A stretch of DNA of 64,000 nt from an uncultured Candidatus Saccharibacteria bacterium (GTDB lineage Bacteria > Patescibacteriota > Minisyncoccia > Phycocordibacterales > CAIZLB01), in contig CAZKAF010000001.1 in assembly GCA_964550955.1 (NCBI GenBank), positions 174,728 through 238,727 of the forward strand. Reading direction: 5' to 3'. The translations under genes were made by a program, and so were the position numbers. Below are positions 3,658 to 38,194 of the stretch, piece by piece (the stretch's first letter is position 1; each line of letters opens with the position of its first letter). A model generated the notes under the pieces. The model ran no database searches. It saw only the letters and a program-made list of their open reading frames with translations, and had not been told where the DNA came from.

Positions 3658-4026
3658 ATGAATATCATCATCAAGGGGGTACATATGGAAATGACAGAAG
3701 CCATTCGGTCTTACGTACAAAAAAAGCTTGAACCGGTCAAGAAATTCGTTGATGAGGGTTCAAAAATAGAAGTGGATCTGGGCAAGACTACCAATCATCA
3801 TAGGAACGGGGACATTTTCAGGGCGGAATACAACATCGTGACCGACGGAAAGCTTACTCGGATCGAAGCGGTGGCGGAAGATCTTTATACCGCCATAGAC
3901 GTCGCGCAGACGGACCTGCTCAACGCGCTCGCGAACCAGAAAGGCAAGAAGCAGACTCTCTGGAAGAAGGGTTCCCAGCGGATCAAAGACTTTGCTCGCG
4001 GACTTGCCAAGCGAAAGAGGAAATAG
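3658..4026 (+). CDS. hpf: ribosome hibernation promoting factor / RaiA (YfiA) family
   Basis: 122 aa. MNIIIKGVHMEMTEAIRSYVQKKL… is the typical HPF N-terminus, and the C-terminus is basic. Confidence 0.85.
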   Translation: MNIIIKGVHMEMTEAIRSYVQKKLEPVKKFVDEGSKIEVDLGKTTNHHRNGDIFRAEYNIVTDGKLTRIEAVAEDLYTAIDVAQTDLLNALANQKGKKQTLWKKGSQRIKDFARGLAKRKRK

Positions 4027-5734: not shown

Positions 5735-5886
5735 TACGTATTATATCAAAAGGTTGCAAGACGCGCTTAGCGCCGGACGCCAAGCAAGTCCGACGTCTTC
5801 GCATTCGGCTTGAGGAGAAGCCGGGGCGTTCCGTCGCCACCCGGTCACGGATTCTTGAACGCCTTAAAGCAGGCCCTCTGGGCGTC

Positions 5887-7893
5887 TTAGAGCAAGCTCT
5901 CGGGATTCACCCTGACCTGATATTCGGGCGGAAGGCTTTTGAGCAGGTTCGCCAGTTCAGGATACGGCCAGCGCTCGGGCTTCAGGGTTATGAGCATGTG
6001 CAGCATGGCCCTTCCTTTTTGAGTCGGCACGAAGGCGGGAAATACGAGGTACGTGAAAATGCTTTCGTGTTCCGGAATCTTTCTGCCCTTGTAGGCGTGC
6101 TCGATTGTCTCGAGCTTGTCCTTGAGAAGCTTCATGAGCTGCGTCGCGCGCTCCTTGGTCTCTTCGATTGTAATCTTGATGTGCGTGCTGAACGGCGGAT
6201 ATTGGATTTCCTCCCGCATCTCCAGCTCGTCCTTGTAAAACTGCGACAGGTTTCCGGAAGTGAAATGGCTCAGGACTTCCGCGTTGTCGGACCGGGTCTG
6301 AATGAGCATGTATGCCGTCGTCCGGTCGAGCATGCGAAGAAGCAATTGCATGATTCGCTCATGGATCCTGAAATCGGGAATCGAGAAAAGGGAATCGAGC
6401 GAAGCGACTGCCGAATATTTGAGTTCCGGCAGGAATGCCAGCGCCGTTTCGGTGCCGATGAGAACCGCGCCTTTTGCGTCCGAGAATTCCTTGATGACGT
6501 CCCGGGCCTGCTTGTCCGTCGTCACCGTGTCCCTGTCGATGGTGAATATCTTCTTGTTCGGAAATAATTTCCTGACTTCGCTCGACACGGTGTCTATTCC
6601 TATGCCGAGGGTTGTCAGCTTCCAGCTTCCGCATTTCTTGCACGTTTCGAGCGCGCCTCTTTGGGCGCCGCAATGATGGCACAGGAAGTACCGGCTCTCC
6701 TGAAGCTCTTTTTCGGTCTGCTTGGCTTTCTTGTTCTCGTGCAAAACTACCGGCGCGTCGCAAACATGGCACTGAACGGTCAGGCCGCAGTCTCCGCATA
6801 CGGTTTGGGGGGAGAGGCCGCGCCGGACGCTGAAGATGAACATGTTGTCTTCCTTCTTGTCGGCGTATTCGATCATCGAGACAAGCTCTTCGCTCAAGAC
6901 CCGGAACGGCTTCTTTTCGCCCGGATCAGGATTGTCGGCATCCGCGGCGGCCTTCTTCGGCTTCATGCTGACCGCGAGGACGTCGGCCGTCTTTTCGATG
7001 CGGTATGAGACGGGGAAGAAGTCCGCGAGCTCTCCCGACTCCCTCCTGTACAGCGTGTCGATGCGAAGCATGCTGTCGCCGAGTATCAGCCGGACTCCGA
7101 GCTGCCTTGCATAGGCCTCAAGATAGTCGCGATAGTCTATGTACGGCGCTCGCATGGTCGAGTATCCGCGCGAGGATTCTTTTTCGATGATGATGGTGCT
7201 GATATCGTTTCTCGGCACGCAGGCGAAGAGCGGCGTGGCGACGATGAGCAGCGAATGGTCTTCCTTGACGGTCTTGCTCCATGCGTCGAGCTGCTTCTTC
7301 TTTGAAAATTTTCCATGCATCAGGACCGCATGCTCGTCGATGCCCTTCTTGAGCGCGCCGAACAGCTCTTCCGCGCTTGCGACCGTCGGAGCGACAAGTA
7401 TGACAGATTTTTTTCGGGCGAACTCTTCCCGCACGATGCTTTTGTAGGTGCTGAGCCTGTCATTGTAATTTGTCTGATACACGACGACATCCGCGACGGT
7501 CTTCAGCGACTCCTCCTTGGCGATTTCTTCCGGAGTCTTCTGTATCTTGACGCTTGCCTTCGACTCGAATGCAATGTCGGGAATGCATGCCTTGAGAGCG
7601 GTGCCGAGAGGCGACACGTATTTTTCAGAAACCTGAATGCATGCCTTGACGCATTCCGGCCGGATAGCCTGGGTTTCGGCTTTCTTTTCTATCTTCTTCG
7701 TGACAAAAGATGCCTGCTTGATGTTCGCTTTCGCATGGCTGGCCGGAGTGACCGCGCCGACGAGCGCCGGAATGCTCTTGTTTCGAAGCGGCACCTCGAT
7801 GATCGAGCCAGGAAGAAAAGAATGGGAGCTCCAGTAGGTGAGTTCTTCCTTGAATGCCCGGCGCATGATCGGATATACGGTTACGATGTTCAT
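5887..7893 (-). CDS. priA: primosomal protein N' (replication restart helicase PriA)
   Basis: 668 aa. It has a DEAD-like helicase core (VILVAPTVASAEELF) and the PriA Cys-rich zinc fingers CGDCGLTVQCHVCD…CHHCG…CKKCG. Confidence 0.9.
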   Translation of the reverse strand: MNIVTVYPIMRRAFKEELTYWSSHSFLPGSIIEVPLRNKSIPALVGAVTPASHAKANIKQASFVTKKIEKKAETQAIRPECVKACIQVSEKYVSPLGTALKACIPDIAFESKASVKIQKTPEEIAKEESLKTVADVVVYQTNYNDRLSTYKSIVREEFARKKSVILVAPTVASAEELFGALKKGIDEHAVLMHGKFSKKKQLDAWSKTVKEDHSLLIVATPLFACVPRNDISTIIIEKESSRGYSTMRAPYIDYRDYLEAYARQLGVRLILGDSMLRIDTLYRRESGELADFFPVSYRIEKTADVLAVSMKPKKAAADADNPDPGEKKPFRVLSEELVSMIEYADKKEDNMFIFSVRRGLSPQTVCGDCGLTVQCHVCDAPVVLHENKKAKQTEKELQESRYFLCHHCGAQRGALETCKKCGSWKLTTLGIGIDTVSSEVRKLFPNKKIFTIDRDTVTTDKQARDVIKEFSDAKGAVLIGTETALAFLPELKYSAVASLDSLFSIPDFRIHERIMQLLLRMLDRTTAYMLIQTRSDNAEVLSHFTSGNLSQFYKDELEMREEIQYPPFSTHIKITIEETKERATQLMKLLKDKLETIEHAYKGRKIPEHESIFTYLVFPAFVPTQKGRAMLHMLITLKPERWPYPELANLLKSLPPEYQVRVNPESLL

Positions 7894-23887: not shown

Positions 23888-25603
23888 ATGAACAGCATCA
23901 GGGCAAGAATTAGGTTCATCTCGATTTGCGTCCTGCTTTTCGCCTGCATGCTTTTCGCGAAGCTTTATACGGTGCAGGTGGTGAACGCGAACGAATTCGC
24001 CGAGCGGGCGGACAGGCAATACCAGCGGCCGGCAAACGCGTTCAACAGGGGAACCGTCTATTTTTCGGACAGGGAGAACAATATCATCTCCGCGGCGACC
24101 CTGAAGACCGGATTCATTCTCATCATCAATCCGAAGACGCTCCAGGCGAACAAGTCCGTCGAGGACTCATACAAGCGCCTGATGGAGGTTCTTCCTGCCG
24201 GCGCGCTGAACTATGACGACTACCTCGCGAAGGCATCGAAGCCCAACGATACGTACGAGGAAATCAAGAAGCAGCTTGACGAGGAGCTTGGCGCGAAGAT
24301 ATCCGAGCTCAAGATTCCGGGCGTGAGCCTGTACCGGGACAAGTGGCGATATTATCCGGGAGGGAGCCTTGCCTCGCACGTGCTCGGCTTCATGGCATTC
24401 AAGGAGAACGACTTGGCCGGACGCTACGGAGTCGAGAGGTTCTATGAAAATACGCTCAAGCGAGAAAGCGACAACGTCTACGTGAACTTTTTCGCGGAGC
24501 TGTTCTCGAATCTGAAAAAGACGGTCACGGTCGGCGAATCGCTGGAAGGGGACATCATTACCACCATCGAGCCGAGGACCCAGGCATACCTCGAAACCGC
24601 CCTCGAGACCATCTCCAGGCAATATTCGTCCGAGAGGACCGGAGGCATCATCATGAATCCGAAGACCGGCGACATCCTGGCCATGGCCATGAACCCGACT
24701 TTCGATCCGAACAATCTCAGGCAGCAGGGCAGCCTGGACATTTTCAGGAATGACATCGTCGAGAGCGTGTATGAGATGGGATCGATCATCAAGCCGCTGA
24801 CCCTTGCGGTCGGCATCGATCTCGGCAAGGTTACCGCCAGCACCACGTACAATGACACCGGTTCGGCTTCGTATGACGGGCATACGATTTACAATTTCGA
24901 CAAGAAGGGGAGAGGGACCATAACGATGCAGTACGCGCTTTCGAAGTCGCTCAATACCGCCTTCGCGTTCATAGTCGACACGGTCGGAACCAAGGCCGTT
25001 GGCGAATACTTCACGAAGTTCGGCTTCGGCGAGAAGACGGGCATCGATCTTCCGAGCGAGGGAACGGGCCTCATATCGAACCTCAAGAGTCCCCGCAAGA
25101 TTGAATACGTGACGGCGTCGTTCGGCCAGGGCATCGCCATGACGCCCATAGAAGTCGTGCGCGCATTTTCAGCTATCGCGAACAAGGGGGAAATGGTCAC
25201 TCCGAGAGTGGCCAAAAGGATTCAGTATCGGGTCGGCCTCGGCAAGGATCAGGGGCTGGGGCCGAAAGTCAGGGTCATAAAGGAAAGCACCGCCCGCCAT
25301 GTCTCGGACATGATGGTCTACAACGTGGATGAGTCGCTCCTGGATGGCAAGGCGAAAAATCCCCGATACACCATTGCGGCCAAGACCGGCACCGCGCAGA
25401 TTGCCGAGAACGGAAAGTACGCCGAAAACCGATACCTGCACTCGTTTGTCGGCTTCCTGCCGGCTTCCGACCCGAAATTCCTGGTGTTCCTGTTCACGGT
25501 GAATCCCCGAGGCGTAAGCTATGCCTCGGAGACGCTTGCAAAGCCGTACATGGAGATGACCAAGTTCCTCATCAATTACTATCAGGTCGCCCCGGACAGG
25601 TAG
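23888..25603 (+). CDS. ftsI: penicillin-binding protein FtsI-like (divisome transpeptidase)
   Basis: N-terminal TM anchor and transpeptidase motifs SIIKP, SKS and KTGT. Confidence 0.85.
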   Translation: MNSIRARIRFISICVLLFACMLFAKLYTVQVVNANEFAERADRQYQRPANAFNRGTVYFSDRENNIISAATLKTGFILIINPKTLQANKSVEDSYKRLMEVLPAGALNYDDYLAKASKPNDTYEEIKKQLDEELGAKISELKIPGVSLYRDKWRYYPGGSLASHVLGFMAFKENDLAGRYGVERFYENTLKRESDNVYVNFFAELFSNLKKTVTVGESLEGDIITTIEPRTQAYLETALETISRQYSSERTGGIIMNPKTGDILAMAMNPTFDPNNLRQQGSLDIFRNDIVESVYEMGSIIKPLTLAVGIDLGKVTASTTYNDTGSASYDGHTIYNFDKKGRGTITMQYALSKSLNTAFAFIVDTVGTKAVGEYFTKFGFGEKTGIDLPSEGTGLISNLKSPRKIEYVTASFGQGIAMTPIEVVRAFSAIANKGEMVTPRVAKRIQYRVGLGKDQGLGPKVRVIKESTARHVSDMMVYNVDESLLDGKAKNPRYTIAAKTGTAQIAENGKYAENRYLHSFVGFLPASDPKFLVFLFTVNPRGVSYASETLAKPYMEMTKFLINYYQVAPDR

Positions 25604-26106
25604 CCGCTGTGTTTTTGAGCCGCGCGATGCGTTTTTGAAATAAAAAAGCGACCAGGCAGGAAATCCTGCGAGGTCGCCGGGAAGGATAAGCATTCTTATC
25701 CAGCGTAAGGAAGCGTCGCCCGCGAAGCGGGCTTCGCCATTCCTCCTCGTTCTTGCCAGGCAAGGTCGAGTGCCTCATTCAGCGGATCGATGGGCTCGAC
25801 CGGACCGGCTGGTCCATCCGGAACTTTCTCGTCGGAGTCCGTACCCGGTGCGATTGTCGTTGCTCGGTACATAGGCTTGGTTCTGTTTCCCGGCAGAGCT
25901 TTGGCGTTATGCCTGGCTCCTCAGCTGACATTTGTATAATGCCATTAAGATGTCCGTTTGTCACTTTTTTGCGGAGGGCATGATGGCGCGGGCATCAGAG
26001 AACCCGGTGTCGCTCCGGACCCAGCATGAGCCCCTGTATTTTTTACGAAAAATGTGTAAAATGCCTATACGCGGACGCCGAACGGCTCGGATGCCGCGAA
26101 CAAGAT

Positions 26107-26165
26107 GGCCCTATCGTCTAGCGCAAAATGTGCATAGCGGCGAAGCCTTCTCAGGAAGGCTGGGC
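26107..26165 (+). pseudogene. tRNA fragment (5' part of tRNA-Glu with a ~13-nt insertion and no T-arm)
   Basis: GGCCCTATCGTCTA…CGAAGCCTTCTCA is identical to the start of the intact tRNA 92 nt downstream. The D-stem is broken and the anticodon loop deformed. Confidence 0.45.
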
Positions 26166-26198
26166 AATAAGATGATATGTGGAAGTAAAGCAAAACAT

Positions 26199-26270
26199 GG
26201 CCCTATCGTCTAACGGTTAGGACGAAGCCTTCTCAAGGCTTAAATCGGAGTTCGATTCTCCGTAGGGTCA
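26199..26270 (+). tRNA. tRNA-Glu (anticodon CTC)
   Basis: Hand-folded cloverleaf. Acceptor GGCCCTA/TAGGGTC; D-stem GTCT/GGAC; anticodon stem AAGCC/GGCTT with loop TTCTCAA; T-arm CGGAG-TTCGATT-CTCCG; discriminator A. CCA is not encoded. Confidence 0.8.
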
Positions 26271-26365
26271 CAAATAGCAAGAAAGATAAAAGTGGAGATT
26301 GGCAATGAGAAAGTACACGTAAAATCTGTCGTTGAATTTTATCCGAAAATAGATATAGTTATATA

Positions 26366-27466
26366 ATGAATTTACGTACGCGTGCCATCTATCTCTTGAT
26401 TATTGAAGTAGGATTAGTTCTCGTTCTGGTTGGTATATATCCACTAATGAGCAAAGAGATATTTGATAGTGGCGGCGACCCTCTTTTTGGCTTCGGCATT
26501 CTCATGTGTCTGGCTTTAGGGATTGCGTGGTGTATGATTGATTTGTATAAAATCTCAAAAGGTACTGCAAAACCGTTTGCACGTGTTAATAATGGACAAA
26601 CAGAATTTACTGTCATCAAGTTAATCAAAAGGCAACCAACCTTTGTTCTGTCTGTATTATTTACAATTATTTTTCCGCTACTCTTTCTGACTATAATAGC
26701 TGTGGGTTTTTCGACAGGATGGACGCTTATATTTTTAGAAGATTTTGATAGAATAACAGAGGTCTACGTTGGTTGGACTGCTGTTTTCCTGCCTTTCTTC
26801 GGTGTAGCTTTTGTGATTTTTTTCTTACAAACAGTCGGGTTCTTGATCACAGGAGAGAGTTTACAACAACATCTTACTGAAGGTCATGATAATTTCTTTT
26901 TGCATATAATAAAGGGTGTGATTATTGCACTGCCATACGTGGTTCTTTACAGCTTCGTGTTCATAATAATGATGTTCTTGCATGGAAAGAATTCAAAAGA
27001 GAGAACGGCGGGTTTAAGAACAACAATCGGAAGCCTGTCGATCTTCTTTGGCTTACAAGCCTTAAAATACTTCATATACGCAAATCTATCCTCGATAGCA
27101 TTTGAAGACAAATACTCATACACCACGCTCAAAGACTCTGCACAATACATGAAAGGTAATGCGGCCAGTTTGCCTTCAGTGTTTACTAACTCAGCGTGGC
27201 TGTCTATGGTGGCTTTTCTCTACCTGCTTGTCCTAATAGTTTGGGCTAGCAAAACTTCTTTTTTAAGTGAGGGTGAGATAGTCATGTTTTCTCTTGCTTT
27301 TACTGCCGTTATTGTTGCATGGATGACATTTGTGGAACAAGTCCTCTTTCTTCTTAACTACGTTCGAGTACAACACCCGGAGTGTGACATGTCTAGCTTG
27401 CTTGAAGACAAGTCATCCAATCAGGACTCACAGATTTTAATGAGCGAAGTGAGCATGAAATCGTGA
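26366..27466 (+). CDS. hypothetical polytopic membrane protein (AT-rich island gene 1)
   Basis: 366 aa with 8 or more hydrophobic helices. AT-rich codon usage unlike the flanking genes. Confidence 0.55.
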   Translation: MNLRTRAIYLLIIEVGLVLVLVGIYPLMSKEIFDSGGDPLFGFGILMCLALGIAWCMIDLYKISKGTAKPFARVNNGQTEFTVIKLIKRQPTFVLSVLFTIIFPLLFLTIIAVGFSTGWTLIFLEDFDRITEVYVGWTAVFLPFFGVAFVIFFLQTVGFLITGESLQQHLTEGHDNFFLHIIKGVIIALPYVVLYSFVFIIMMFLHGKNSKERTAGLRTTIGSLSIFFGLQALKYFIYANLSSIAFEDKYSYTTLKDSAQYMKGNAASLPSVFTNSAWLSMVAFLYLLVLIVWASKTSFLSEGEIVMFSLAFTAVIVAWMTFVEQVLFLLNYVRVQHPECDMSSLLEDKSSNQDSQILMSEVSMKS

Positions 27467-27565
27467 TGTCGCGACACTCAGGATTTGCGAAGCAAAGACG
27501 CTTGTGTCGGCGACGCACACCTTCAACGGCTAGCACGAGCGGCGTCAGGACAACAGTTCAGAAAG

Positions 27566-27603
27566 TTTGCATGGCTACGCAATTTGAGGAAAAGCGATAT
27601 AAT
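27566..27603 (+). promoter_or_regulatory. 38-nt repeated promoter-like element, copy A (…TTTGAGGAAAAGCGATATAATT)
   Basis: A near-identical copy lies at 28750-28787. It ends in TATAAT 8 nt before the Nudix ATG. Confidence 0.5.
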
Positions 27604-27611
27604 TAAAGTAT

Positions 27612-28118
27612 ATGGAACCAGTTCTAAAATTAAATCCGGATAATATTACGGATGAAGCTGCCGCCAGGTTAAGGACCAGATTTGCTGCCAGAGGCGTCGT
27701 CTTTGACGAAAACAAAAACGTAGCGCTTCTCCCGGTCACTGCTCACCACTATTACAAGCTTCCAGGCGGCGGAATCGAAGAAGGCGAAGATAGGGTTGAA
27801 GCTTTTCGCAGGGAATGCTTGGAAGAAATCGGTTCAGACGTGGAAGTGGTGCAAGAGTTAGGGTCGGTGGTCGAGTACAGGGCAGAATTTTCTCTTGCTC
27901 AGACTTCGTATTGCTTTGTGGGCAAAGCAATAGGGGAAAGGACAAAAGCGACTTTTACCCAGCATGAATTGGACAATGGCTTTCAAGAAGCATTGTGGGT
28001 TCCTTTAGATAAGGCCATTGAACTCATGGAAAGTCAGGCGGACAATTATGAGGGCAAATTTATTGTAGAGAGGGACACATTTCTTTTAAAAAAGGTGAGA
28101 TCGTCGGGAATCCTCTAA
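27612..28118 (+). CDS. Nudix hydrolase
   Basis: Nudix box LPGGGIEEGEDRVEAFRRECLEEIGS (Gx5Ex7REUxEExGU). Confidence 0.8.
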   Translation: MEPVLKLNPDNITDEAAARLRTRFAARGVVFDENKNVALLPVTAHHYYKLPGGGIEEGEDRVEAFRRECLEEIGSDVEVVQELGSVVEYRAEFSLAQTSYCFVGKAIGERTKATFTQHELDNGFQEALWVPLDKAIELMESQADNYEGKFIVERDTFLLKKVRSSGIL

Positions 28119-28160
28119 AGTACCGGGCAGGATTATCCGACCCATGCTACAATTTATCTC

Positions 28161-28703
28161 ATGAAAAAACTGATTGCGCTTCTCATATTCTTAATAATCG
28201 CTCTTGTTGCTTATAATACGCGAGATAATTTTTGGGCTAAAGATCAGGACGAGCGCGTGCAGGCGACCGATGCCATGAATTATGTGTTCCTTTCGGGCAA
28301 AAAAGGCAGTCCGATACTTCCGATAAAAACAGCCTATACTTCAAAGGCGGACATGAGCATCATTTCGTCTACTTACATAGAGCAAACCAATCTTGATCTC
28401 AGCAAGATTGAAACCGGAGATGAGGTGTCGATAGTGTCATGGGATGGAAGGGCAATTGAGGGCAGAGTTGATTTATTCGAGAGCGGAAACATGATGACGG
28501 GCGGACGTCTGGAAGAATTTAAAAGAGTGGCTGGACAGCTGAAAGAGGGAGGGGCATATTCGTTAACATTGGATAAGGACTTTAAAGTAACCGCCGGGAC
28601 TATCTTCGGATTCACCGGAAAATACTTTTTTACTATCAAGAAAGATTCTGATGGCAAGTTGGTGATGGATGAAAGGCCGCGAGAGGCGGTGGTGTCTGAA
28701 TAG
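28161..28703 (+). CDS. hypothetical secreted/membrane-anchored protein
   Basis: 180 aa with an N-terminal hydrophobic anchor (LIALLIFLIIALVAY). No motif. Confidence 0.5.
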   Translation: MKKLIALLIFLIIALVAYNTRDNFWAKDQDERVQATDAMNYVFLSGKKGSPILPIKTAYTSKADMSIISSTYIEQTNLDLSKIETGDEVSIVSWDGRAIEGRVDLFESGNMMTGGRLEEFKRVAGQLKEGGAYSLTLDKDFKVTAGTIFGFTGKYFFTIKKDSDGKLVMDERPREAVVSE

Positions 28704-28749
28704 GTAGAAATTATCCGCTCGGGCAGCATCAGGGCAATAATCCAGCGAT

Positions 28750-28787
28750 TTTGCATGGCTACGCAATTTGAGGAAAAGAGATATAAT
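28750..28787 (+). promoter_or_regulatory. 38-nt repeated promoter-like element, copy B
   Basis: One mismatch to copy A. TATAAT lies 7 nt before the ATG at 28795. Confidence 0.5.
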
Positions 28788-28794
28788 TCAAGGC

Positions 28795-29823
28795 ATGGAA
28801 AAACAATCCCGCATACGCTTCCTCAATCAGCCCAAGCCTCTTGCTGAACGCGCTTCAGGGTACGAGAAGGATGAATATGAACGAAAGATGGCCCTCATTC
28901 CTTGCGTGGAACACTTTCTTTCATCTAATGACAGCTTTAAAGGCAAGGACGTTTCCGTTACCTTTCCCCATACGGGGGTATCTTCGCTTGTATGCATATT
29001 GGAAGCTGACGGTGAAAAAACCGTACTCAAAATCCCCGTTAGCATCAACCTTCCCGAAGGCGAATCCGATTGCCTGAAAAGCTGGGAGCTGGTCGGCGTC
29101 AGCGTGCCGCATGTTATCCAAGAGGGGATGATCGAAGGCCGACCGTACATTCTCATGTCCCATATTGATGCCGTGCGCTTGATGGATGTTCCTGCCGAGA
29201 AAGCGGACAAGGAAATATACATGAAGCTCGGCAGGACGCTTCGCCAAATGCATCAGTCCAAAGCTTGCGGTTACGGGCGCATTAAAAATCACAAAGCCGA
29301 GCATGTTCAATTCAGGGATTGGCTTAATAGTGAATATGAACAAAGGATGATCAATCACGTGCGCGCTCGAAATATCATAGATGACGAGAAGCACGGATCC
29401 TTGTCGAAGGCTTTGGAAATATTAACCATGTACGTCGAATCGAATCCGCAGAGCGCGTACTGCCATCATGATTTCAGTACGGGCAGCACATTCGCCACCG
29501 ATCCGATTGCCGTCTTTGATCCCAACCCTTTGATCAATCATCCGATCATTGATATTGCCCGCAGCGTTGTCTTGATTGCCGGAAGCGGACCGAATGAAAA
29601 TGTCAGGCAATTCATTGATCAAATGATGGAAGGATACTTTGGCGAAGAAGCGCACGACAAGCAGGCTTTCCAGGCGGCCATACTATTGAATGCGCATTCA
29701 AAAATCTTTAACTGGCGTAATTCCGGACGAACTCAAAATATTGAGAACATGCTCGCGTATTTATCTGAAACTAAGCATTTGTTGTCCTGGCAAGGACCGA
29801 TGAAAGGCAGGGTTATCGAATGA
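28795..29823 (+). CDS. phosphotransferase-family kinase (APH / choline-kinase-like fold)
   Basis: CHHDFSTGSTF (HxD catalytic loop), a downstream DPNP (DFG-like) motif, and DIA. The ATG at 28795 is preferred; the ORF-track start at 28768 is a TTG inside the repeat. Confidence 0.7.
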   Translation: MEKQSRIRFLNQPKPLAERASGYEKDEYERKMALIPCVEHFLSSNDSFKGKDVSVTFPHTGVSSLVCILEADGEKTVLKIPVSINLPEGESDCLKSWELVGVSVPHVIQEGMIEGRPYILMSHIDAVRLMDVPAEKADKEIYMKLGRTLRQMHQSKACGYGRIKNHKAEHVQFRDWLNSEYEQRMINHVRARNIIDDEKHGSLSKALEILTMYVESNPQSAYCHHDFSTGSTFATDPIAVFDPNPLINHPIIDIARSVVLIAGSGPNENVRQFIDQMMEGYFGEEAHDKQAFQAAILLNAHSKIFNWRNSGRTQNIENMLAYLSETKHLLSWQGPMKGRVIE

Positions 29824-29924
29824 TCTGCATCCTGATTGCCTGATTCCGCGGAAGATAGTACTATCTTGGCAGATCGCACCCAAGCAACAATCAACCTTAA
29901 CAGCGATCCTGGAAAGATACCGCC

Positions 29925-30059
29925 ATGGCAAGACAAGCGCACGATCGTGGCCTGCAGAAGCAGACCAAGAATTACCCAAGCTTCACGGCGGCACGCCGGA
30001 GAAGAAGGGCTCATAAGGCGAATCGTCGCCGACTCCAACAGGGAGGGAGGTCATTCTGA
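29925..30059 (+). CDS. possible small arginine-rich protein (44 aa, MARQAHDRGLQKQTKNYPSFTAARRRRRAHKANRRRLQQGGRSF)
   Basis: An ATG preceded by GGAAAG, with a strong intrinsic terminator 45 nt downstream. There is no homology I can assign. Confidence 0.3.
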   Translation: MARQAHDRGLQKQTKNYPSFTAARRRRRAHKANRRRLQQGGRSF

Positions 30060-30102
30060 TTATCGGTGACGGGTTCGGCTGCCCTTACGGGGCTTCAACG
30101 AG

Positions 30103-30155
30103 GCCGCCGACTTCATGCGCATTCGCGCGAAGTCGGCGGCTTTTGTCTTTTGATT
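30103..30155 (+). terminator. strong rho-independent terminator
   Basis: 12-bp stem GCCGCCGACTTC…GAAGTCGGCGGC followed by TTTTGTCTTTTGATT. Confidence 0.6.
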
Positions 30156-30596
30156 CGCCTGCGCGAGAGCCTGCTTGAGCCTTCGGGCTGGCAGCTTCCC
30201 GGGTCTTGGGCCGGAGCATCTCGGGCATGCCAGCTGAGCTTCGCGTCATTGAATAATGCCCGCGGGCGTAGTAGCATTATTGCAGACATTCGATTGTTCC
30301 TTGCTGCTTAACGCGGCATTTTCATGCAAAAAAACCAGGCAAGATAGAAAGAACCGAACCATGCCCCAAGCACATGACCCCGGCAGAATCAAAAGAGTCA
30401 AGCAGATGCTGAGAAAGCGGCAAAAAGCCGAAACGAAAGCGCACTTCGACCATTCGTTCCATTCGCGAGACATGACAGTTCTCGGAGATATCTGGGAAGG
30501 CCGATTTCGCCGCGAGAATCGAGCTGCGGCTCATGCGCACGACTCTCGCCGGTCGGACTTCTGACCCTCGCTCAGCCGGCAGATTTTCTGCCAACC

Positions 30597-30637
30597 AAAA
30601 ACCCCTTTCCGCACAAAGCGTGGATAGGGGTTTGTTT
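30597..30637 (-). terminator. intrinsic terminator downstream of the yqeY-like gene
   Basis: On the minus strand the stem AAACCCCT…AGGGGTTT is followed by TTTGGTTGG. Confidence 0.5.
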
Positions 30638-30677
30638 AATGCAAACGGGCCATGCCCGAGATTGTCGAGCCCTAAAT

Positions 30678-31130
30678 CTAAAACAAGCTTTCAAGCACTT
30701 CTTTCACGTCCGTTCCGTCGGCCTTTCCTTTGAGATCCTTCATCAGGGCGCTCATGAGCATGCCTTGCTTTGACTTGTCATCAATGCCGAGCTCAGCTTT
30801 CTTTGCTTCGGCGATAGTCTTGATTTCATCTTTTGACATCATCTGGGGAAGGTATACTTCAAGAAGCGCAAGTTCTGCCTGCTCGGACTCGGCAAGTTCC
30901 GGCCGTCCGGCATTCGTGAACTGCTCGATGGCGTCCTTTCGCTGCTTGACCGCTCTTCGGATGACGGCAGTCGTCTCTTCGTCCGAAAGGGCGTCCTGCG
31001 GAGTTCGGCCGAGCGAGACAAGCTCGTTGGTAAAAGAGCTCATGAGGCCCCGGATAACCGTCAGTCGAACGGCGTCCTTTGCCATCATGGCTTCCTTTAA
31101 GCTCGCCTTTATCGTTTCTTGAAGTGACAT
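30678..31130 (-). CDS. yqeY: GatB/YqeY-domain protein
   Basis: 150 aa. LKEAMMAKD…LSDEE…VKQRKDAIEQF…AGRPELAE…YLP matches the YqeY family pattern. Confidence 0.8.
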   Translation of the reverse strand: MSLQETIKASLKEAMMAKDAVRLTVIRGLMSSFTNELVSLGRTPQDALSDEETTAVIRRAVKQRKDAIEQFTNAGRPELAESEQAELALLEVYLPQMMSKDEIKTIAEAKKAELGIDDKSKQGMLMSALMKDLKGKADGTDVKEVLESLF

Positions 31131-31153: not shown

Positions 31154-32371
31154 ATGAATAATTCTTTGGTGCTTATTGTAGCCTTAATCCTTGTCATTAT
31201 CAATCTTGCGGCCGTCATCTATTTCTTCAGAAGGCAATCTCAAAATGCCGGCGCGCCTCAGGACATTTTCGGATTCGGCACGGGAACGGGCGCGGGAGCG
31301 AACGGCCAAGCCGGAGGAGGGGAGAATCATCCGGCGCTCCAGCTGCTGCTTCAGCAAATCAATGAGCTCGGCAGGACCGTCGATGCGCGGGTAAGCGACG
31401 TGACCAAGACCATCGACTCGAAGATGCACGACATGGGACGGAACGTGGACTCGAAGCTCGGCGAGTCGCACAAGCAGATGCAGGACACGGTTCGATATCA
31501 GACGGGGGAATCGTTCAAGCTGCTCAAGGACGTGACGGAGCGCCTGACAAAGCTCGACGAGACGAACAAGCAGGTTGTCTCTTTCGCCGATCAGCTCCAA
31601 AGCCTTCAGGACATCCTGAAGAATCCCAAGCAGCGAGGCATTCTCGGCGAATATTATCTTGAGACGCTCCTGAAGAACGTCATGCCCACGGGCAGCTTTC
31701 AGATGCAGTACGCATTCAAGGACGGGACCATCGTGGACGCCGCGGTTTTCGTGAAAGACAAGGTCATTCCGATCGACTCGAAGTTCAGCCTCGAGAATTA
31801 CAATCGGCTGGCAGAGGAACGCGACCCTGTCGAGCGGGAGCGGCTGGAGAAAGTCTTCAAGAACGACCTCAAGAACCGCATAGACGAAACGTCCAAGTAC
31901 ATCAAGCCGGAAGAAAACACCATGGAGTTCGCGTTCATGTTCATTCCGCATGAAGCCATTTACTACGACCTGCTCGTGGCGCAAGTCGGCTCGGTGAAAA
32001 TCAACACGAGGGATCTCATCGAATACGCGTTCAAGGACAAGCGGGTAATCATCGTGTCGCCGACTTCGTTCCTGGCTTACCTTCAGACCGTGCTTCAGGG
32101 CTTGAAGGCGATGCAGATAGAAGAATCGGCCAAGGAGATCCGCAAGCGGGTAGAGGAGCTCGGCACGCACATAAAGAGCTACGATCAGTACATGTCTTCA
32201 TTGGGCAAGTCGCTCGGAACCACGGTGAATCATTACAACAAGGCTCACAATGAGCTCAAGAAAATAGACAAGGATGTCATGCGCATCACGGCCGAAGGCG
32301 GAGCGGCGCTTGCGGCGACCATAGAGCCGCTTGTCATCGAGCGTCCGGACATGGATGGCGCGGAGGAATAA
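31154..32371 (+). CDS. rmuC: DNA recombination protein RmuC
   Basis: N-terminal TM, a long coiled coil, and the RmuC C-terminal region (YYLETLLKNVMP, FMFIPHEAIYYDLL). Confidence 0.85.
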   Translation: MNNSLVLIVALILVIINLAAVIYFFRRQSQNAGAPQDIFGFGTGTGAGANGQAGGGENHPALQLLLQQINELGRTVDARVSDVTKTIDSKMHDMGRNVDSKLGESHKQMQDTVRYQTGESFKLLKDVTERLTKLDETNKQVVSFADQLQSLQDILKNPKQRGILGEYYLETLLKNVMPTGSFQMQYAFKDGTIVDAAVFVKDKVIPIDSKFSLENYNRLAEERDPVERERLEKVFKNDLKNRIDETSKYIKPEENTMEFAFMFIPHEAIYYDLLVAQVGSVKINTRDLIEYAFKDKRVIIVSPTSFLAYLQTVLQGLKAMQIEESAKEIRKRVEELGTHIKSYDQYMSSLGKSLGTTVNHYNKAHNELKKIDKDVMRITAEGGAALAATIEPLVIERPDMDGAEE

Positions 32372-33817: not shown

Positions 33818-36800
33818 ATGAAAGCCTTTTTCTCGTATCCGGTAAGAAACTTCGCGGCTCTCTGTCTGACGCTCGGTCTCATTCTCGCCCCCAACGCATC
33901 TCTTCTTGCTCAGGTAGGCGACAGCAGTCTCACGTTCCTTCAGCGCCTCAGATGCGCATTCAACCCCGTGCTTCTGGTGGTTCCTTTGCCCGGCTATTGT
34001 TACCGGGTTGATATTGCGGATGACACTTCGGCTGCCGCTTCGACGTCGGAGTCGGAAACGTCGGCTCTTGCAAGCATCCTGCAACCAAGGGGCATGGCGG
34101 CGCCTGCGGCTCATGTTCCCTCCAGCGCGGAAATTCCTGCTGCGACGACGCGAGCTGAAGGCATTTCCTCTTCAGGGCAGCGGCCTGTATACGTCACGAA
34201 TACTCTGTATCGAACCGATCCGGACGCGGTAACTCGCCAGCAATTGGAGCAAAGGCTCCAGCTGTTCAAGAATACGCTTCCCGTGACGGTTACGGCTACA
34301 GGCTATTCAGCCCCGACTTACGCTTCTTATTCATGGACCAATCCGCCGCCAAACATGGCATCCGCGGAGTATGTCAATTCAAGGGTGTCCGAGAGTTTCT
34401 CTTCCCTGGCGCTTCGCATCGATGACATTGAGCAGAATCAGCAGGGCACATCCAGCCCTTCGCAGTGGGCTGACGGAATCGCGGGCATTTCATATACGGG
34501 AGGGAATGTCGGAATCGGCACTACCACCCCTCCGTTCACCCTGACCGTAGCAATGCCGAGCGGGGAGCAGGCGTTCTTTGTCACTTCGAGCGGAGCTGCG
34601 GGAAATAGCACCGCAAATCCTCTTGATGCTACCGGCGTCGGCCTTACGCCGAGGAGGTTTTCATGGGAGGTTCCTGGGGCGGGATCTGGCTGGGGTGCAC
34701 GTTTCTCGAATGCCGGCACAGGAAATTTTAAGAACGTTCTCTTCCTTTCTGCCGCATCAACTTCTACATTCAGTTATATCCTGAGTGCTGAAAGCGGCGG
34801 CGTCAGCAGGTTCATCGTGAAGGCAAACGGCAGAGTCGGCATCAATACGGCCGCCCCGTCGAGCATGCTCGATATCAGGGCGATGAATGGGGATACTGAC
34901 CTTTTTTCTGTCACATCTTTTAATAATAATCCGTCTCTCGTTGTAAGGAATACCGGCTTGGTCGGAATCGGAACCGGCAATCCAGACGCAAGGCTTCATG
35001 TTTTGTCTGCAGCCACGAACGCTGCCACGCTTGTTGCCCAGGCCACTACTTCCCAGGCAGCATCCGTCCTTGATGTTCGGGATTCCACGGGAATCTCACT
35101 TCTCAACGTGCTGCCGGGAGGTAATGTCGGCATGGGCACCGCTTCGCCGAACCATCTCTTGGAGGTTTCCCATGCGGGCACGGCCGACTTCCTGGGCGTA
35201 GGGGCTTTCTTTGCGCCGAACAACACTACGGCCGGATACGCGACGCAGCTTAAGTTTGGCGTGAGCAATACGATGGGCAACAGCGCGGAATGGCGATACG
35301 TTCATCAGGGAAGCGACAACAACGCAAACCGGATTGACTTTGGATTCAACGGATACGCATCTCCTGTGCTTTCGTATAACAAGGCCGGCAATGTAGGTAT
35401 CGGCACCACAACACCAGCACAAAAACTTTCAGTCGCTGGCGGTATGCGACTCACTGGAGCGTTCTTCGACGGTGCAAATACGAGCGGCACAGCGGGCATG
35501 GTTTTGCAAACTACAGGCACTGGCACGCAATGGGTGGCCACTTCGTCATTGGGCATCTCCGGCGGCGAGTCGTCGCAATGGACAACCTCCGGATCTGACA
35601 TTTATTATGATGCAGGAAAGGTGGCGGTAGGGACGACTACGGCCTGGGATGACTTTACCGTCAGCTTGAATGGCGGAAAGAGAATGTCCATGGGTGCCGA
35701 CTCGAACAATTATCTCGCATGGGGGTTCACGAGCGGCGGCTACAGTTCAGTTCCAAGTTATGCCAATGCGGGCGGTACTGGCAATAGGACATCGCTCATT
35801 ACGGTATCCGGAACACTTACTCTTGCGGTTGGAGCACCTTCACGATTGGTAAACGGAGATATTTCGGCAAACGCTGCTTATTTTACAAACAATGAATCTG
35901 TGGCAGGCAAGTATCTTGTGTTCGACTTCGGCGTGGATGCGTCGAAAGTTATCACTGAAGCAAGATTTTACCAGAACCCTGCCATTTCTCAAGGAACGTT
36001 CAATTGGCAAGGGTCGAATGACGGCAACACCTGGACAGATATTGGCTCAAGCTTTGTTCTTGGTGGAAATACGGTGCAAACCATTACGACTCTTTCGGAA
36101 AATACTACAGGCTATCGATATTATCGAATCCTTGGATTGTCCGGGACGACGAATTGGAATTCCTACATACATCAGTTTGAGTTTCAGATTGATGATTTTC
36201 AAACAGCAACCTATGCCTCTGGGCAAACATATTCAATTGATGGTGTTTCGGCTGCCGGTACTGTTGCGCTTCAGTCGTCTGGCGGCAGCGTGGGAATTGG
36301 TACCGTGTCCGCATTGTCCAAGCTCGATGTTAACGGAAATGTATCCATCGGATCATATGCTGGAACAATAGCGGCGCCAGTAAACGGCTTGATTGTGAGC
36401 GGCAACGTGGGTATTGGCACTACGACTCCTGCCAGCAAGCTTTCGGTTGCCGGAAGCGCATTTATCGGCGGCGATTTGGTCGCAACAGGCAGCATCACCT
36501 TCGGCAATTTTAATATGAATGCTGTGGCAACGTGCGGTCAGCAATACCATACCTTTATCGGCTCCATCGGAGACGTCGGCGGCGATCAGTGCGCGGCCCT
36601 GAACGTGACTCAGCAGGATACGAACGGAAATGTTATTTACCGCTTCGGCGGAGTCGGCCAAGCATGGGCTGGTGAATTTTATGCCAACAGCTCTCTGGTT
36701 GGAATGAACACTAAGGGTGGCATCCCCCTCAGCTTTCAGATCGGCCAGACTGAGGCGATGAGGGTTGCGACAAACGGCAACGTGGGCATAGGAACGACGA

Positions 36801-38194
36801 CTCCAGCCTACAAGCTTGATGTCAACGGCGACATCGGCCGTTCCGGCGGCGACTTGGTGATGTACGCCGGCGTGAAAGACAATTCAAGCCTTTGGTTTAG
36901 AACTGGAACGAGCGCGAACTATACGGACGAATTTGTCATAAATGGAGCTGCAAATACCATTTCCCTTGGCGGCAATGATTTGCTGCTTTCTTCAGGAAGG
37001 ATAGGCATTGGCACCACCACGCCAGCGAGCAAACTCCACGTCTTCTCTGGCGAGGCTGGTCCGGTTGTCGCGACCACTACGGCAAGCCTGGTACTCGAGA
37101 GCGCTTCGAGCAATTTCCTTCAGTTCATGAATCCTGGAGCCGCCGCCTCCGGTGTGTTCTTCGGCCACGGCAATAGCGGCGGCACGTACCGCGACGGCGC
37201 AATCCTCTATAACTACGTCGGCCCCTCGAACAGCTTGGCCTTTTACGCGGACGGCGTCGATCCGCGCATGATTATCACGGGCACGGGCAACGTGGGAATC
37301 GGCACCACGACTCCTACCGAAAAGCTCGATGTGGTTGGAGGCATACGAGCATCGAGTCCTTCAGGGAACATCGGCGTATCCGTGCATTATTCCGGGTCTG
37401 GAGGAAGGGAATATCAGTTCTTGTCATGTTCGAATTGCGGCACTGCCAGCCTCGGCGGCCTTGAGGTGTATGACCGCAATGCCAGTGCGGGACGCGCATA
37501 TATCGCGGCGGGAGTGAACGGCTGGCAGACGCCATCCGACCGACGCCTCAAGAAAGATATCGAGACGCTGAGCGTTCTCGACAGGCTTGGCGAAGTTCGG
37601 GGCGCAACGTATGTCTTGCGCGATTCGGACATCAAGCAAATCGGCGTCATCGCTCAGGAAATCAGGGACGCGTTCCCTGAAGCGGTGTCAGGAGAGGAAA
37701 TAGAAGGGCGCTTCCTCGGAGTTTCATATGATGCCATCGCGACTATTGCGCTTCAGGGCGTCAAGGAAATCGCCGATCTTTCAAGCGCCTTCAAGAATCG
37801 TCTGATCGGTTGGTTTGCTGACGCCTCAAACGGAATTGGCAAATTGTTTGTCGGCGAAGTTCGTACCGAAAAGCTATGCGTAGGCGATACGTGCGTCACT
37901 GAAGCCCAGCTCCAGGCGCTCCTTCTCAATGCGAGCCTTTCTCAGGCTCAAGCGTCAGGAGGATCAAGCGCGCCAGCTGCTGAATCAGGCGCTCAAAATG
38001 ACAAGAACGACGCGGGCAAGGAAAAGCCGAAAGATGCGGCCGACAATGCGCCGGCAGCCGGCGGGAAGCCGGATGATTCAGCGCCCGCTGACAAAATTAA
38101 AGATGCCGCCGTCATTTCTCCGCCGGCTGATCCCGTGATTTCAGAAGCCGGGCTCTCGTTGCCGACGACGCCCGAAGCTCCAGTTGAAAATTAG
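33818..38194 (+). CDS. giant secreted fibre/adhesin-like protein (1458 aa) with tail-fibre-type repeats, discoidin-like segment and C-proximal intramolecular-chaperone (peptidase S74-like) domain
   Basis: Signal peptide MKAFFS…LLAQ. At least 10 copies of G(N)VGIGTTTPxxKLxV. Segment KYLVFDFG…FNWQGSNDGNTWTDI…YRYYRILG resembles F5/8 type C. PSDRRLKKDIETLS…GVIAQEIRDAFPEAV…VSYDAIATIALQGVKEI matches the tail-fibre/endosialidase chaperone domain. An Ala/Pro/Asp/Lys-rich tail follows. Confidence 0.8.
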   Translation: MKAFFSYPVRNFAALCLTLGLILAPNASLLAQVGDSSLTFLQRLRCAFNPVLLVVPLPGYCYRVDIADDTSAAASTSESETSALASILQPRGMAAPAAHVPSSAEIPAATTRAEGISSSGQRPVYVTNTLYRTDPDAVTRQQLEQRLQLFKNTLPVTVTATGYSAPTYASYSWTNPPPNMASAEYVNSRVSESFSSLALRIDDIEQNQQGTSSPSQWADGIAGISYTGGNVGIGTTTPPFTLTVAMPSGEQAFFVTSSGAAGNSTANPLDATGVGLTPRRFSWEVPGAGSGWGARFSNAGTGNFKNVLFLSAASTSTFSYILSAESGGVSRFIVKANGRVGINTAAPSSMLDIRAMNGDTDLFSVTSFNNNPSLVVRNTGLVGIGTGNPDARLHVLSAATNAATLVAQATTSQAASVLDVRDSTGISLLNVLPGGNVGMGTASPNHLLEVSHAGTADFLGVGAFFAPNNTTAGYATQLKFGVSNTMGNSAEWRYVHQGSDNNANRIDFGFNGYASPVLSYNKAGNVGIGTTTPAQKLSVAGGMRLTGAFFDGANTSGTAGMVLQTTGTGTQWVATSSLGISGGESSQWTTSGSDIYYDAGKVAVGTTTAWDDFTVSLNGGKRMSMGADSNNYLAWGFTSGGYSSVPSYANAGGTGNRTSLITVSGTLTLAVGAPSRLVNGDISANAAYFTNNESVAGKYLVFDFGVDASKVITEARFYQNPAISQGTFNWQGSNDGNTWTDIGSSFVLGGNTVQTITTLSENTTGYRYYRILGLSGTTNWNSYIHQFEFQIDDFQTATYASGQTYSIDGVSAAGTVALQSSGGSVGIGTVSALSKLDVNGNVSIGSYAGTIAAPVNGLIVSGNVGIGTTTPASKLSVAGSAFIGGDLVATGSITFGNFNMNAVATCGQQYHTFIGSIGDVGGDQCAALNVTQQDTNGNVIYRFGGVGQAWAGEFYANSSLVGMNTKGGIPLSFQIGQTEAMRVATNGNVGIGTTTPAYKLDVNGDIGRSGGDLVMYAGVKDNSSLWFRTGTSANYTDEFVINGAANTISLGGNDLLLSSGRIGIGTTTPASKLHVFSGEAGPVVATTTASLVLESASSNFLQFMNPGAAASGVFFGHGNSGGTYRDGAILYNYVGPSNSLAFYADGVDPRMIITGTGNVGIGTTTPTEKLDVVGGIRASSPSGNIGVSVHYSGSGGREYQFLSCSNCGTASLGGLEVYDRNASAGRAYIAAGVNGWQTPSDRRLKKDIETLSVLDRLGEVRGATYVLRDSDIKQIGVIAQEIRDAFPEAVSGEEIEGRFLGVSYDAIATIALQGVKEIADLSSAFKNRLIGWFADASNGIGKLFVGEVRTEKLCVGDTCVTEAQLQALLLNASLSQAQASGGSSAPAAESGAQNDKNDAGKEKPKDAADNAPAAGGKPDDSAPADKIKDAAVISPPADPVISEAGLSLPTTPEAPVEN

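Follow-up and report, generated by a model that had tools for sequence, protein, structure and literature searches.

What do four AT-rich genes standing directly behind a tRNA gene in a very small bacterial genome represent, and how did they come to be there? The question arises from a 64,000-nucleotide stretch of contig CAZKAF010000001.1 (GenBank assembly GCA_964550955.1), here termed the window, which belongs to a Paceibacteria-like genome of the candidate phyla radiation (CPR) with a guanine-plus-cytosine (GC) content of about 52%. CPR bacteria have tiny genomes and, to our knowledge, little is known of the ways in which they acquire accessory genes. In the window, immediately past the mraZ-rsmH-ftsL-ftsI cluster, an intact tRNA-Glu(CTC) gene (26199..26271, plus strand; ARAGORN, and Rfam at 61 bits) is followed by a block of four genes, here the islet, which ends at the stop codon of a kinase gene at 29823; the genes yqeY and rmuC lie beyond it. 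An earlier note, made by reading the sequence, had described the block as a horizontally acquired island with a tRNA remnant as part of its signature. With a probability of about 0.72, the islet consists of accessory cargo peculiar to this lineage, which fills a variable slot bounded by tRNA-Glu(CTC) and yqeY-rmuC and was acquired horizontally in the manner of an additive flexible genomic island; the earlier view of a lineage-specific foreign insertion 3′ of tRNA-Glu is thereby upheld, whereas the tRNA remnant is not supported as its boundary.

This reading is carried first by what occupies the same slot in related genomes. A scan of a genome collection with FtsI identified a Paceibacterota metagenome-assembled genome (MAG; locus L003, FtsI 84% identical), a MAG labelled Saccharibacteria (L004, 67%) and six more relatives at 41–47%; L001 and L002 are near-identical copies of the window population, and a scan of metagenomes with FtsI returned nothing closer than about 51% identity. 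The gene order mraZ - rsmH - ftsL - ftsI - tRNA-Glu(CTC) ... yqeY(-) - rmuC - L21 is common to the window, L003 and L004. The left flank is ftsI, which encodes the transpeptidase of a penicillin-binding protein (23888..25603, plus strand; Pfam Transpeptidase, E 2e-68), and the right flank is formed by yqeY (30678-31130, minus strand; Pfam YqeY, E 7e-38; 89% identical in L003 and 71% in L004) and rmuC (31154-32371, plus strand; Pfam RmuC, E 2e-53; 86% and 74%). As judged by blastn, nucleotide homology to the window ends at the 3′ end of the tRNA for L003, runs 4 nt further for L004, and resumes inside the 3′ end of yqeY (at 30697 for L003). The 6-kb slot of L003 encodes a DEDDh exonuclease, a secreted protein, a 754-aa beta-propeller/Ig/peptidoglycan (PG)-binding protein and a SulP transporter, and the 4.5-kb slot of L004 encodes an ATPase-like protein, a DUF4325 protein, a 249-aa protein, TfoX_N, an MGMT-type domain and DsbB, the first 2.7 kb past its tRNA being AT-rich (GC 27–35% against about 40% for the locus). 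None of the four window proteins has a tblastn match in the L003 or L004 loci, and an all-against-all blastp comparison of the cargo of nine genomes (E 1e-4) found none to be shared, except for a Mur ligase behind ftsI in the distant relatives. In these more distant relatives tRNA-Glu(CTC) also borders variable genes near ftsI and yqeY. The synteny suggested for comparison in the earlier note is therefore kept in part: ftsI-tRNA-Glu and yqeY-rmuC retain their order in the relatives but are separated by other cargo rather than contiguous, and the same four genes, whose presence at this position in all relatives would have spoken against an island, give way to unrelated cargo in both L003 and L004. 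As the four genes are absent from the two closest genomes identified, where unrelated cargo is found instead, the islet is lineage-specific cargo in a variable slot, and the slot shows two marks of a hotspot, namely one position with conserved flanks and different, unrelated cassettes within it.

The second line of evidence is composition, which the earlier note had judged by eye to be about 40% GC inside the block and 55% outside. The direction was right and the size slightly overstated: the mean GC of the window is 52.1%, and positions 26280-29823 have 43.8% against 52.6% for the remainder, making this segment the lowest among all 3.5-kb sliding windows (mean 52.1%, standard deviation 2.4%; about 3.4 standard deviations below the mean). 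At 300-nt resolution GC drops from ~55% to 36–42% inside ~150 nt of the tRNA and is back to 56–59% right past the kinase stop at 29823. The raw tetranucleotide distance of the block is at the top of the window (z 4.2) and is still raised after normalisation for base composition (z 2.1). In gene order, GC at third codon positions (GC3) is 0.40, 0.46, 0.49 and 0.54, compared with 0.654 +/- 0.070 for the 47 other genes of the window, and the log-likelihood of synonymous codons under a host model gives z-scores of -6.0, -2.7, -2.4 and -1.4, so that the first gene, for a membrane protein, is the most foreign of the four. GC and codon usage, the uniformity of which the earlier note would have counted against an island, are thus uneven in the GC windows, in GC3 and in codon z-scores, and the block shows the deviant composition and codon usage of a classical integrase-mediated tRNA island. 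The arrangement was found again in two independent Logan assemblies and the islet proteins are also present on a 696-kb NCBI contig in the protein collection, so the block is no assembly chimera.

Low GC could also be native to the region, arising from the amino-acid composition of the membrane protein or from a local mutation bias, with the relatives having lost or replaced the genes. The membrane-protein gene is indeed low in GC at first codon positions (0.436) and typical of the window at second positions, the codon usage of the kinase gene is near the host range, and the promoter style of the block matches that of host genes. However, GC3 and the synonymous-codon statistics are unaffected by amino-acid content, and they reach extreme values in the first gene and low ones in the second and third; the compositional break coincides exactly with the 3′ end of the tRNA and the stop codon of the kinase gene; three related genomes hold three unrelated gene sets in the slot; and L004 has the same AT-rich pattern right past its own tRNA. 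A native origin is very improbable on these grounds, and is largely refuted already.

The position of the block invites comparison with islands that form at tRNA genes. The tRNA-Glu(CTC) gene is the sole tRNA in the whole window, on which ARAGORN and Rfam agree, and the block lies directly 3′ of it as the earlier note had said: the tRNA ends at 26271, the AT-rich block starts there, and the homology of the relatives stops 0–4 nt past the tRNA, which is the placement of a classical tRNA island. One explanation is that the four genes are what is left of a tRNA-targeting integrative element (a prophage remnant, a satellite or a tycheposon-like element) from which the integrase, the replication genes and the right attachment site (attR) were deleted, an 854-nt gene-free stretch behind the kinase gene being its eroded distal part. 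The location directly 3′ of a tRNA and the foreign composition suit such an origin, decay of this kind in streamlined genomes has been described (bioRxiv 10.1101/2020.12.28.424599), tRNA scars are frequent in CPR loci (a 3′-end repeat in locus L057 and 5′ scars in the window and in locus L026), and a serine-recombinase-like open reading frame (ORF), identified by reading its N-terminal sequence, lies near tRNA-Glu in the relative L007. Against it, no integrase or recombinase domain was found by Pfam in the four proteins or in the scanned ORFs of the tail, the remaining stop-to-stop segments having been read by eye only; the 26-nt 3′ end of the tRNA recurs nowhere in the window when up to 3 mismatches are allowed; and no 11-mer is shared beyond an upstream 5′ fragment and one chance site. 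The earlier note had likewise seen neither an integrase nor a 3′-end direct repeat. Three of the four proteins were compared by tblastn with 50,697 phage records, none of which matched, a scan of IMG/VR with the kinase alignment was empty as well (the membrane-protein alignment was too divergent to scan), and the cargo of the relatives is also free of integrases. A decayed element is a less probable source of the islet, at odds well below even.

Accessory cargo of the additive type fits the slot more closely. Additive flexible genomic islands at tRNA hotspots are known from Alteromonas and others (PMC4898812), and the islet shares with them a conserved tRNA-adjacent position, cassettes that differ among relatives, heterogeneous functions and a foreign composition. 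It differs from them in that there is neither a partial tRNA repeat downstream of the cassettes nor an integrase, in its tiny size (3.5 kb, four genes), in its CPR host with a very small genome, and in that the one tRNA repeat it has comes from the 5′ part and precedes the tRNA. In the tycheposon islands of Prochlorococcus, older cargo is pictured as being displaced from the tRNA by newer insertions (bioRxiv 10.1101/2020.12.28.424599). These islands have in common with the islet a streamlined genome, anchoring at a tRNA and partial-tRNA scars, and the gradient of codon bias across the four genes fits stacking with the newest nearest the tRNA; the site-specific integrase and hallmark replication genes that define tycheposons are, by contrast, absent here and in the slots of the relatives.

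The partial tRNA copy requires separate treatment. A tRNA promoter-like motif, GAAAAATGTGTAAAATGCC, with the extended -10 element TGTGTAAAAT (26047..26065, plus strand), is kept upstream of tRNA-Glu in L003 and L004, and between it and the intact tRNA of the window lies a degenerate 5′ part of tRNA-Glu (26107..26160, plus strand), which was delimited by DNA pattern and repeat searches and by sequence inspection. Its first piece (26107-26123) corresponds to tRNA positions 1–17 with 16/17 identities and its second (26141-26153) to the anticodon-arm 13-mer with 13/13; the two are set apart by a 17-nt unrelated insert, and the fragment is now remodelled into a perfect 7-bp hairpin. Neither match is expected by chance, as judged from shuffled sequences, so the degenerate copy that the earlier note had placed 92 nt upstream, measured from fragment start to tRNA start, is real. 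The TAAAAT hexamer is 45 nt from the tRNA start in L003 and 44 nt from the fragment start in the window, and because these offsets are equivalent the fragment sits at the ancestral tRNA position. Lying there, upstream of the tRNA, it is no boundary of the four genes, which it does not flank, and the use of the remnant as the boundary of an island has to be given up. The longer leader of L004 aligns collinearly with the promoter, fragment, spacer and tRNA of the window, the middle of this alignment being weak and only suggestive. The anticodon-stem variant CGAAGCC is common to the fragment and the tRNA of the window (CGGAGCC in L003), and thus there is no sign of a foreign origin for the intact tRNA. 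A simple tandem duplication of promoter, leader and tRNA was considered and set aside, as the similarity between the first leader and the spacer is marginal (z 2.2).

Standard integration models, including those of the Campbell type, put the inserted DNA between the 5′ fragment and the restored tRNA, an interval of only 40–75 nt here. The simplest reading is that the fragment was left as a scar by some other event at the tRNA gene and is not an islet boundary, a 5′ stub being what promoter-retaining deletions naturally leave; local duplication or recombination at tRNA-Glu, followed by decay of the promoter-proximal copy, would produce it. Scars of this general kind were seen at 3 of the 17 distinct tRNAs examined in the fetched CPR loci (in the window, L026 and L057), which fits tRNA genes acting as recombination hotspots, the sample being far too small for a claim. 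In L057 (1044-1291) the scar is of the classical attachment-site-like type, with a 19-nt copy of the 3′ end of tRNA-Arg(TCT) 157 nt downstream of that gene (z 7.9). L026 (GCA_052033735.1, JBPOJI010000008.1, 3625-3850) is an unrelated CPR contig with the same layout of promoter, 5′ scar, tRNA and kinase as the window: behind the promoter-like TAATGTAAAAT stands a 19/22 copy of positions 1–22 of tRNA-Ala(TGC) at 3661-3682 (z 7.2), the intact tRNA-Ala (3733-3808) starts 72 nt after the start of this copy, and an APH-family kinase gene, the product of which is 48% identical to the window kinase, begins 42 nt past the tRNA. No 3′ tRNA remnant was found downstream of tRNA-Ala in L026, and an 11-nt D-arm match at 5504 was discarded as chance, since it falls within coding sequence and goes no further. 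The window (tRNA-Glu) and L026 (tRNA-Ala) hence have in common a promoter, a 5′ scar, a 50–75 nt spacer, an intact tRNA and accessory genes that include an APH kinase of the same family. It is conceivable, and in our judgement rather improbable, that CPR tRNA genes undergo insertion or replacement of unusual polarity, in which an intact tRNA arrives, or is regenerated, together with accessory genes and the resident tRNA is cut to a promoter-proximal 5′ scar, with no integrase or 3′ repeat left behind; homology-facilitated illegitimate recombination after DNA uptake would be a candidate process.

For the preferred reading of the islet as horizontally acquired cargo, a source and a route can be proposed. 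The four genes, each with a promoter of its own, may have been drawn by horizontal transfer from bacteria of lower GC, probably other CPR: the contigs that carry homologues are mostly of 36–43% GC, and the named homologues of the kinase come from CPR lineages. The fading of codon bias with distance from the tRNA suggests stepwise accretion, and the genes were probably gained in more than one step, with the newest adjoining the tRNA. The most foreign gene stands nearest to the tRNA and the most ameliorated one at the far end, with the host-like non-coding tail behind it. The DNA may have recombined into place through the conserved flanks once it had been taken up, or may have entered as an integrative element that has since lost its mobility genes and attR; these are the likeliest routes and are inseparable on present data. 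Several points weigh against the reading as a whole. No mobility gene, attachment-site repeat or recombination tract has been demonstrated, which makes the entry mechanism a matter of inference; only two reasonably close genomes are available, so that the timing and direction of gain or loss are poorly resolved; the best identities on the donor side are 57% (kinase) and 52% (membrane protein), and no near-identical donor was found; the codon usage of the kinase gene (z -1.4) is inside the host tail, and this gene could be old or even native; and a promoter cassette shared by two of the genes hints at more functional coherence than miscellaneous cargo would have. The locus is a clean small case of a positionally conserved, tRNA-flanked slot, the content of which turns over among Paceibacteria-like genomes with no visible mobility genes, and it provides a data point for island formation that is integrase-independent or fully decayed in streamlined genomes. 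It also yields leads, none of them established: a 5′ tRNA scar that recurs in the interval from promoter to tRNA, a promoter cassette in two copies placed as if for leaderless transcripts, and a small prokaryotic membrane-protein family with a model that resembles the eukaryotic CTL/SLC44 fold.

What do the four genes encode? The earlier note had called a polytopic membrane protein, a Nudix hydrolase, an anchored protein and an APH-fold kinase, and all four calls are confirmed. The first gene (26366..27466, plus strand) encodes a polytopic membrane protein of 366 aa from a small uncharacterised family. It has no significant match in Pfam, NCBIfam or PADLOC and seemed to be an orphan in a word-indexed search; an exhaustive HMMER search of 1.8 billion cluster representatives revealed a family of about 30, the best at 52% identity. 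One member (P0049 of the family set P0049-P0077; 675 aa) is fused to an extracellular domain. A confident AlphaFold2 (AF2) model built with the family alignment has a mean predicted local distance difference test (pLDDT) score of 87.8 and a predicted template-modelling (TM) score (pTM) of 0.85, and when it was compared with the PDB by Foldseek the only matches at E<0.1, which were also the top three, were yeast Pns1 and human CTL1/SLC44A1. This likeness to the CTL/SLC44 proteins (E 0.01–0.03, probability 1.0 for each) is a specific yet weak match, with TM scores of 0.43–0.47 and a large root-mean-square deviation (rmsd); the membrane protein differs from them in being without a large extracellular domain, and neither any of 27 family members nor their profile has a PF04515 or PDB sequence-profile match. 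It has been argued that the CTL fold is possibly not a transporter at all, and its transport role is disputed (2026 paper, PMC13160678).

The second gene (27612..28118, plus strand) encodes a Nudix hydrolase of 168 aa (PF00293, E 4e-15) with a Nudix box that is intact by inspection; the protein falls below the cutoff of every NCBIfam equivalog, and the closest solved structure is 2azw (E 1e-8). The third (28161..28703, plus strand) encodes a 180-aa protein that is anchored through an N-terminal helix, residues 2–34 of the AF2 model, which was made from the single sequence and is otherwise poor and unusable. This protein matched only itself among 5.8 billion clustered proteins in a word-based search, and has no Pfam, PADLOC or NCBIfam match. 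The fourth (28795..29823, plus strand) encodes an APH/FN3K-like small-molecule kinase (PF01636, E 1e-7) of 342 aa when read from the ATG at 28795. The mechanical ORF starts at a TTG at 28768, within the promoter cassette, and the ATG is the likelier start because the longer ORF runs into that cassette and the Logan gene calls also give 342 aa. With 32 bits against the Pfam APH gathering threshold of 23.2 the kinase belongs to the superfamily (PF01636 clan), and like FN3K and APH kinases (PF03881, PF01636) it has the K, E, HxD and FDP motifs, which are conserved across 22 family members. The best PDB match of the family profile, and so its best solved relative, is the plant ribulosamine-3-kinase 6oid, at only E 0.003. 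The window kinase is set apart from FN3K and APH kinases by a family-specific N-terminal extension of ~55 aa, by a Ser, in this copy, where most members of its family have the Mg-binding Asn of HxDxxxxN, by a Fructosamin_kin score of 18.7 bits against a Pfam cutoff of 22.4, and by its distance from the APH(3′) models (20 against 205 bits). The family has at least 46 proteins at 38–57% identity, three of which are source-named (Woesebacteria, Paceibacterota and an unclassified "bacterium").

Do these four genes act together? A coherent functional module is one alternative to miscellaneous cargo: the membrane protein, kinase, Nudix hydrolase and exoprotein might jointly handle an envelope sugar or amino-alcohol through uptake or handling, phosphorylation and control of a nucleotide-activated pool, or might form an undescribed defence or resistance system. 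In favour of this is a 76-nt promoter cassette common to the Nudix and kinase genes, together with the match of the membrane-protein model to CTL1/Pns1 alone at E<0.1 and the position of the kinase family nearest to small-molecule kinases of the FN3K, APH and choline-kinase type. The contexts of the homologues bear on both sides of the question. The closest homologues of the kinase (in L051-L053 and L059) stand in the order rpsB - tsf - small ORF - tRNA-Thr(TGT) ... kinase - GT2 glycosyltransferase ... pheST, and in some CPR lineages the kinase gene thus seems stable and tied to that of a glycosyltransferase; a homologue of the membrane protein is near a GT2 gene of the same type (L057/58), and others lie beside secreted PG_binding_1 proteins (several) and HIT, PAP2, MFS and GT2 genes. 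Other kinase homologues follow tRNA-Ala and precede an anchored protein (L026), lie among genes for glyoxalase, DUF1801 and CYTH proteins (L027) or adjoin tuf (L028). However, no Nudix gene or membrane-protein homologue was found near the kinase homologues in L026-L028, L051-53 and L059, none of the other three islet genes was found near the membrane-protein homologues, and overall 0 of roughly 10 homologue contexts had two of the four genes together. As the homologues sit in differing contexts, the islet is no conserved module. The wide differences in codon bias among the four genes, the weak CTL match with no sequence support and a disputed transport role (PMC13160678), and the Ser that replaces the catalytic-loop Asn in the kinase add to the case against it. 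In L057 a membrane-protein homologue (5862-7065) lies directly 3′ of tRNA-Ser(TGA).

The resistance-like or defence-like module that the earlier note had raised finds no support in the model collections. PADLOC-DB 2.0 gave only a match of the Nudix box to the candidate PDC-S07 (31 bits) and nothing for the other three proteins, and the NCBIfam antimicrobial-resistance (AMR) models for APH(3′) scored the kinase at 20.4 bits against a cutoff of 205 and at 18.2 against 360. With no PADLOC system, no AMR-model match and homologues in unrelated neighbourhoods, a coherent module of any of these kinds is unlikely. PADLOC likewise returned only generic DEDDh, kinase or ATPase matches for the cargo of the relatives. 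The first cargo of L004 (7329-8565) is an ATPase-like protein of 327 aa with an overlapping DUF4325 (STAS-like) protein of 88 aa, at 27–29% GC, and this pair received no firm PADLOC assignment. The islet is an ordinary small genomic islet in a tRNA-adjacent hotspot, with no recognisable defence or resistance system. Its genes look like miscellaneous accessories of the envelope or of small-molecule metabolism rather than one co-evolved system, and the occurrence of homologues beside GT2 genes and PG-binding exoproteins points loosely to possible roles in the cell envelope or in the handling of nucleotide sugars rather than in defence.

The cassette itself is present in two copies, both detected in a repeat search: copy 1 (27533..27608, plus strand) has a TATAAT that ends 8 nt before the ATG of the Nudix gene, and in copy 2 (28717..28792, plus strand) this hexamer stops 7 nt short of the kinase ATG at 28795. 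Over their full length the two agree at 83%; two differences fall in the 43 nt nearest the ATG, and both copies contain an identical 29-nt core, which occurs exactly 2 times in the window against 0 expected. The core contains the imperfect palindrome TTGCATGGCTACGCAA, found nowhere else in the window, and beyond these two copies the 76-nt repeat is absent from the window and from the other loci, the assemblies of the same organism (L001 and L002) excepted. A structured RNA was rejected because the fold z-scores are positive, and the repeat is probably a duplicated promoter/operator cassette, through which the Nudix and kinase genes would probably be co-regulated. The membrane-protein gene has its own promoter-like site at 26332-26359, and all four islet genes have a -10-like hexamer 6–8 nt before the start and no Shine-Dalgarno sequence, as do many host genes. 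This arrangement suggests that the islet genes may be leaderless in expression, and the match between islet and host promoter style fits a donor from a similar lineage or with the same expression style. Among the 50 listed start regions of the window only 5 have a Shine-Dalgarno-like motif, and many first genes have a TATAAT-like hexamer 6–11 nt before the start codon; these sequence features suggest that leaderless or near-leaderless mRNAs could be widespread in the organism.

The remaining features of the locus lie on either side of the islet. Between ftsI and the tRNA, a space of 600 nt, lies a small conserved ORF of 58 aa (25696..25872, minus strand; ...LNEALDLAW...YAG*), convergent with ftsI and called as a gene in the Logan assembly. 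An ORF at the equivalent site of L003 (6940-7140, minus strand) resembles it by eye (...LN[ED]ALD..W...YAG*), and the terminator is conserved. The 306 nt around the 58-aa ORF have an unusually stable predicted fold in the window (z -4.1) and not in L003 (z -0.3). On the other side, the rest of the variable slot is a gene-free stretch of 854 nt with host-like GC (29824..30677), delimited by composition. It contains a strong intrinsic terminator, a hairpin with a T-run, at 30103-30150 (fold z -3.2 for 29824-30160), and it has no Pfam, Rfam, blastn or tblastx match and no counterpart in L003 or L004. A pseudogene or an integrase remnant was sought in the stretch and rejected, since Pfam on the longer ORFs and blastn and tblastx against all loci were empty and the stop-to-stop translations look non-coding; for a conserved small ORF next to yqeY, proposed by eye (30361-30564 in the window, 13171-13389 in L003), BLASTP gave no confirmation. 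Of the known RNA families, Rfam recovered none but the tRNA, whether at gathering or at E-value thresholds. The stretch might represent older cargo in a state of erosion, or else an RNA not yet described. Finally, 3 kb to the right of the slot, a gene at 33818-38194 encodes a protein of 1458 aa with many repeats of the GNVGIGTTTP type and a C-terminal Peptidase_S74 domain (an intramolecular chaperone), and this gene is itself atypical in codon usage (z -2.0) and in tetranucleotide content.

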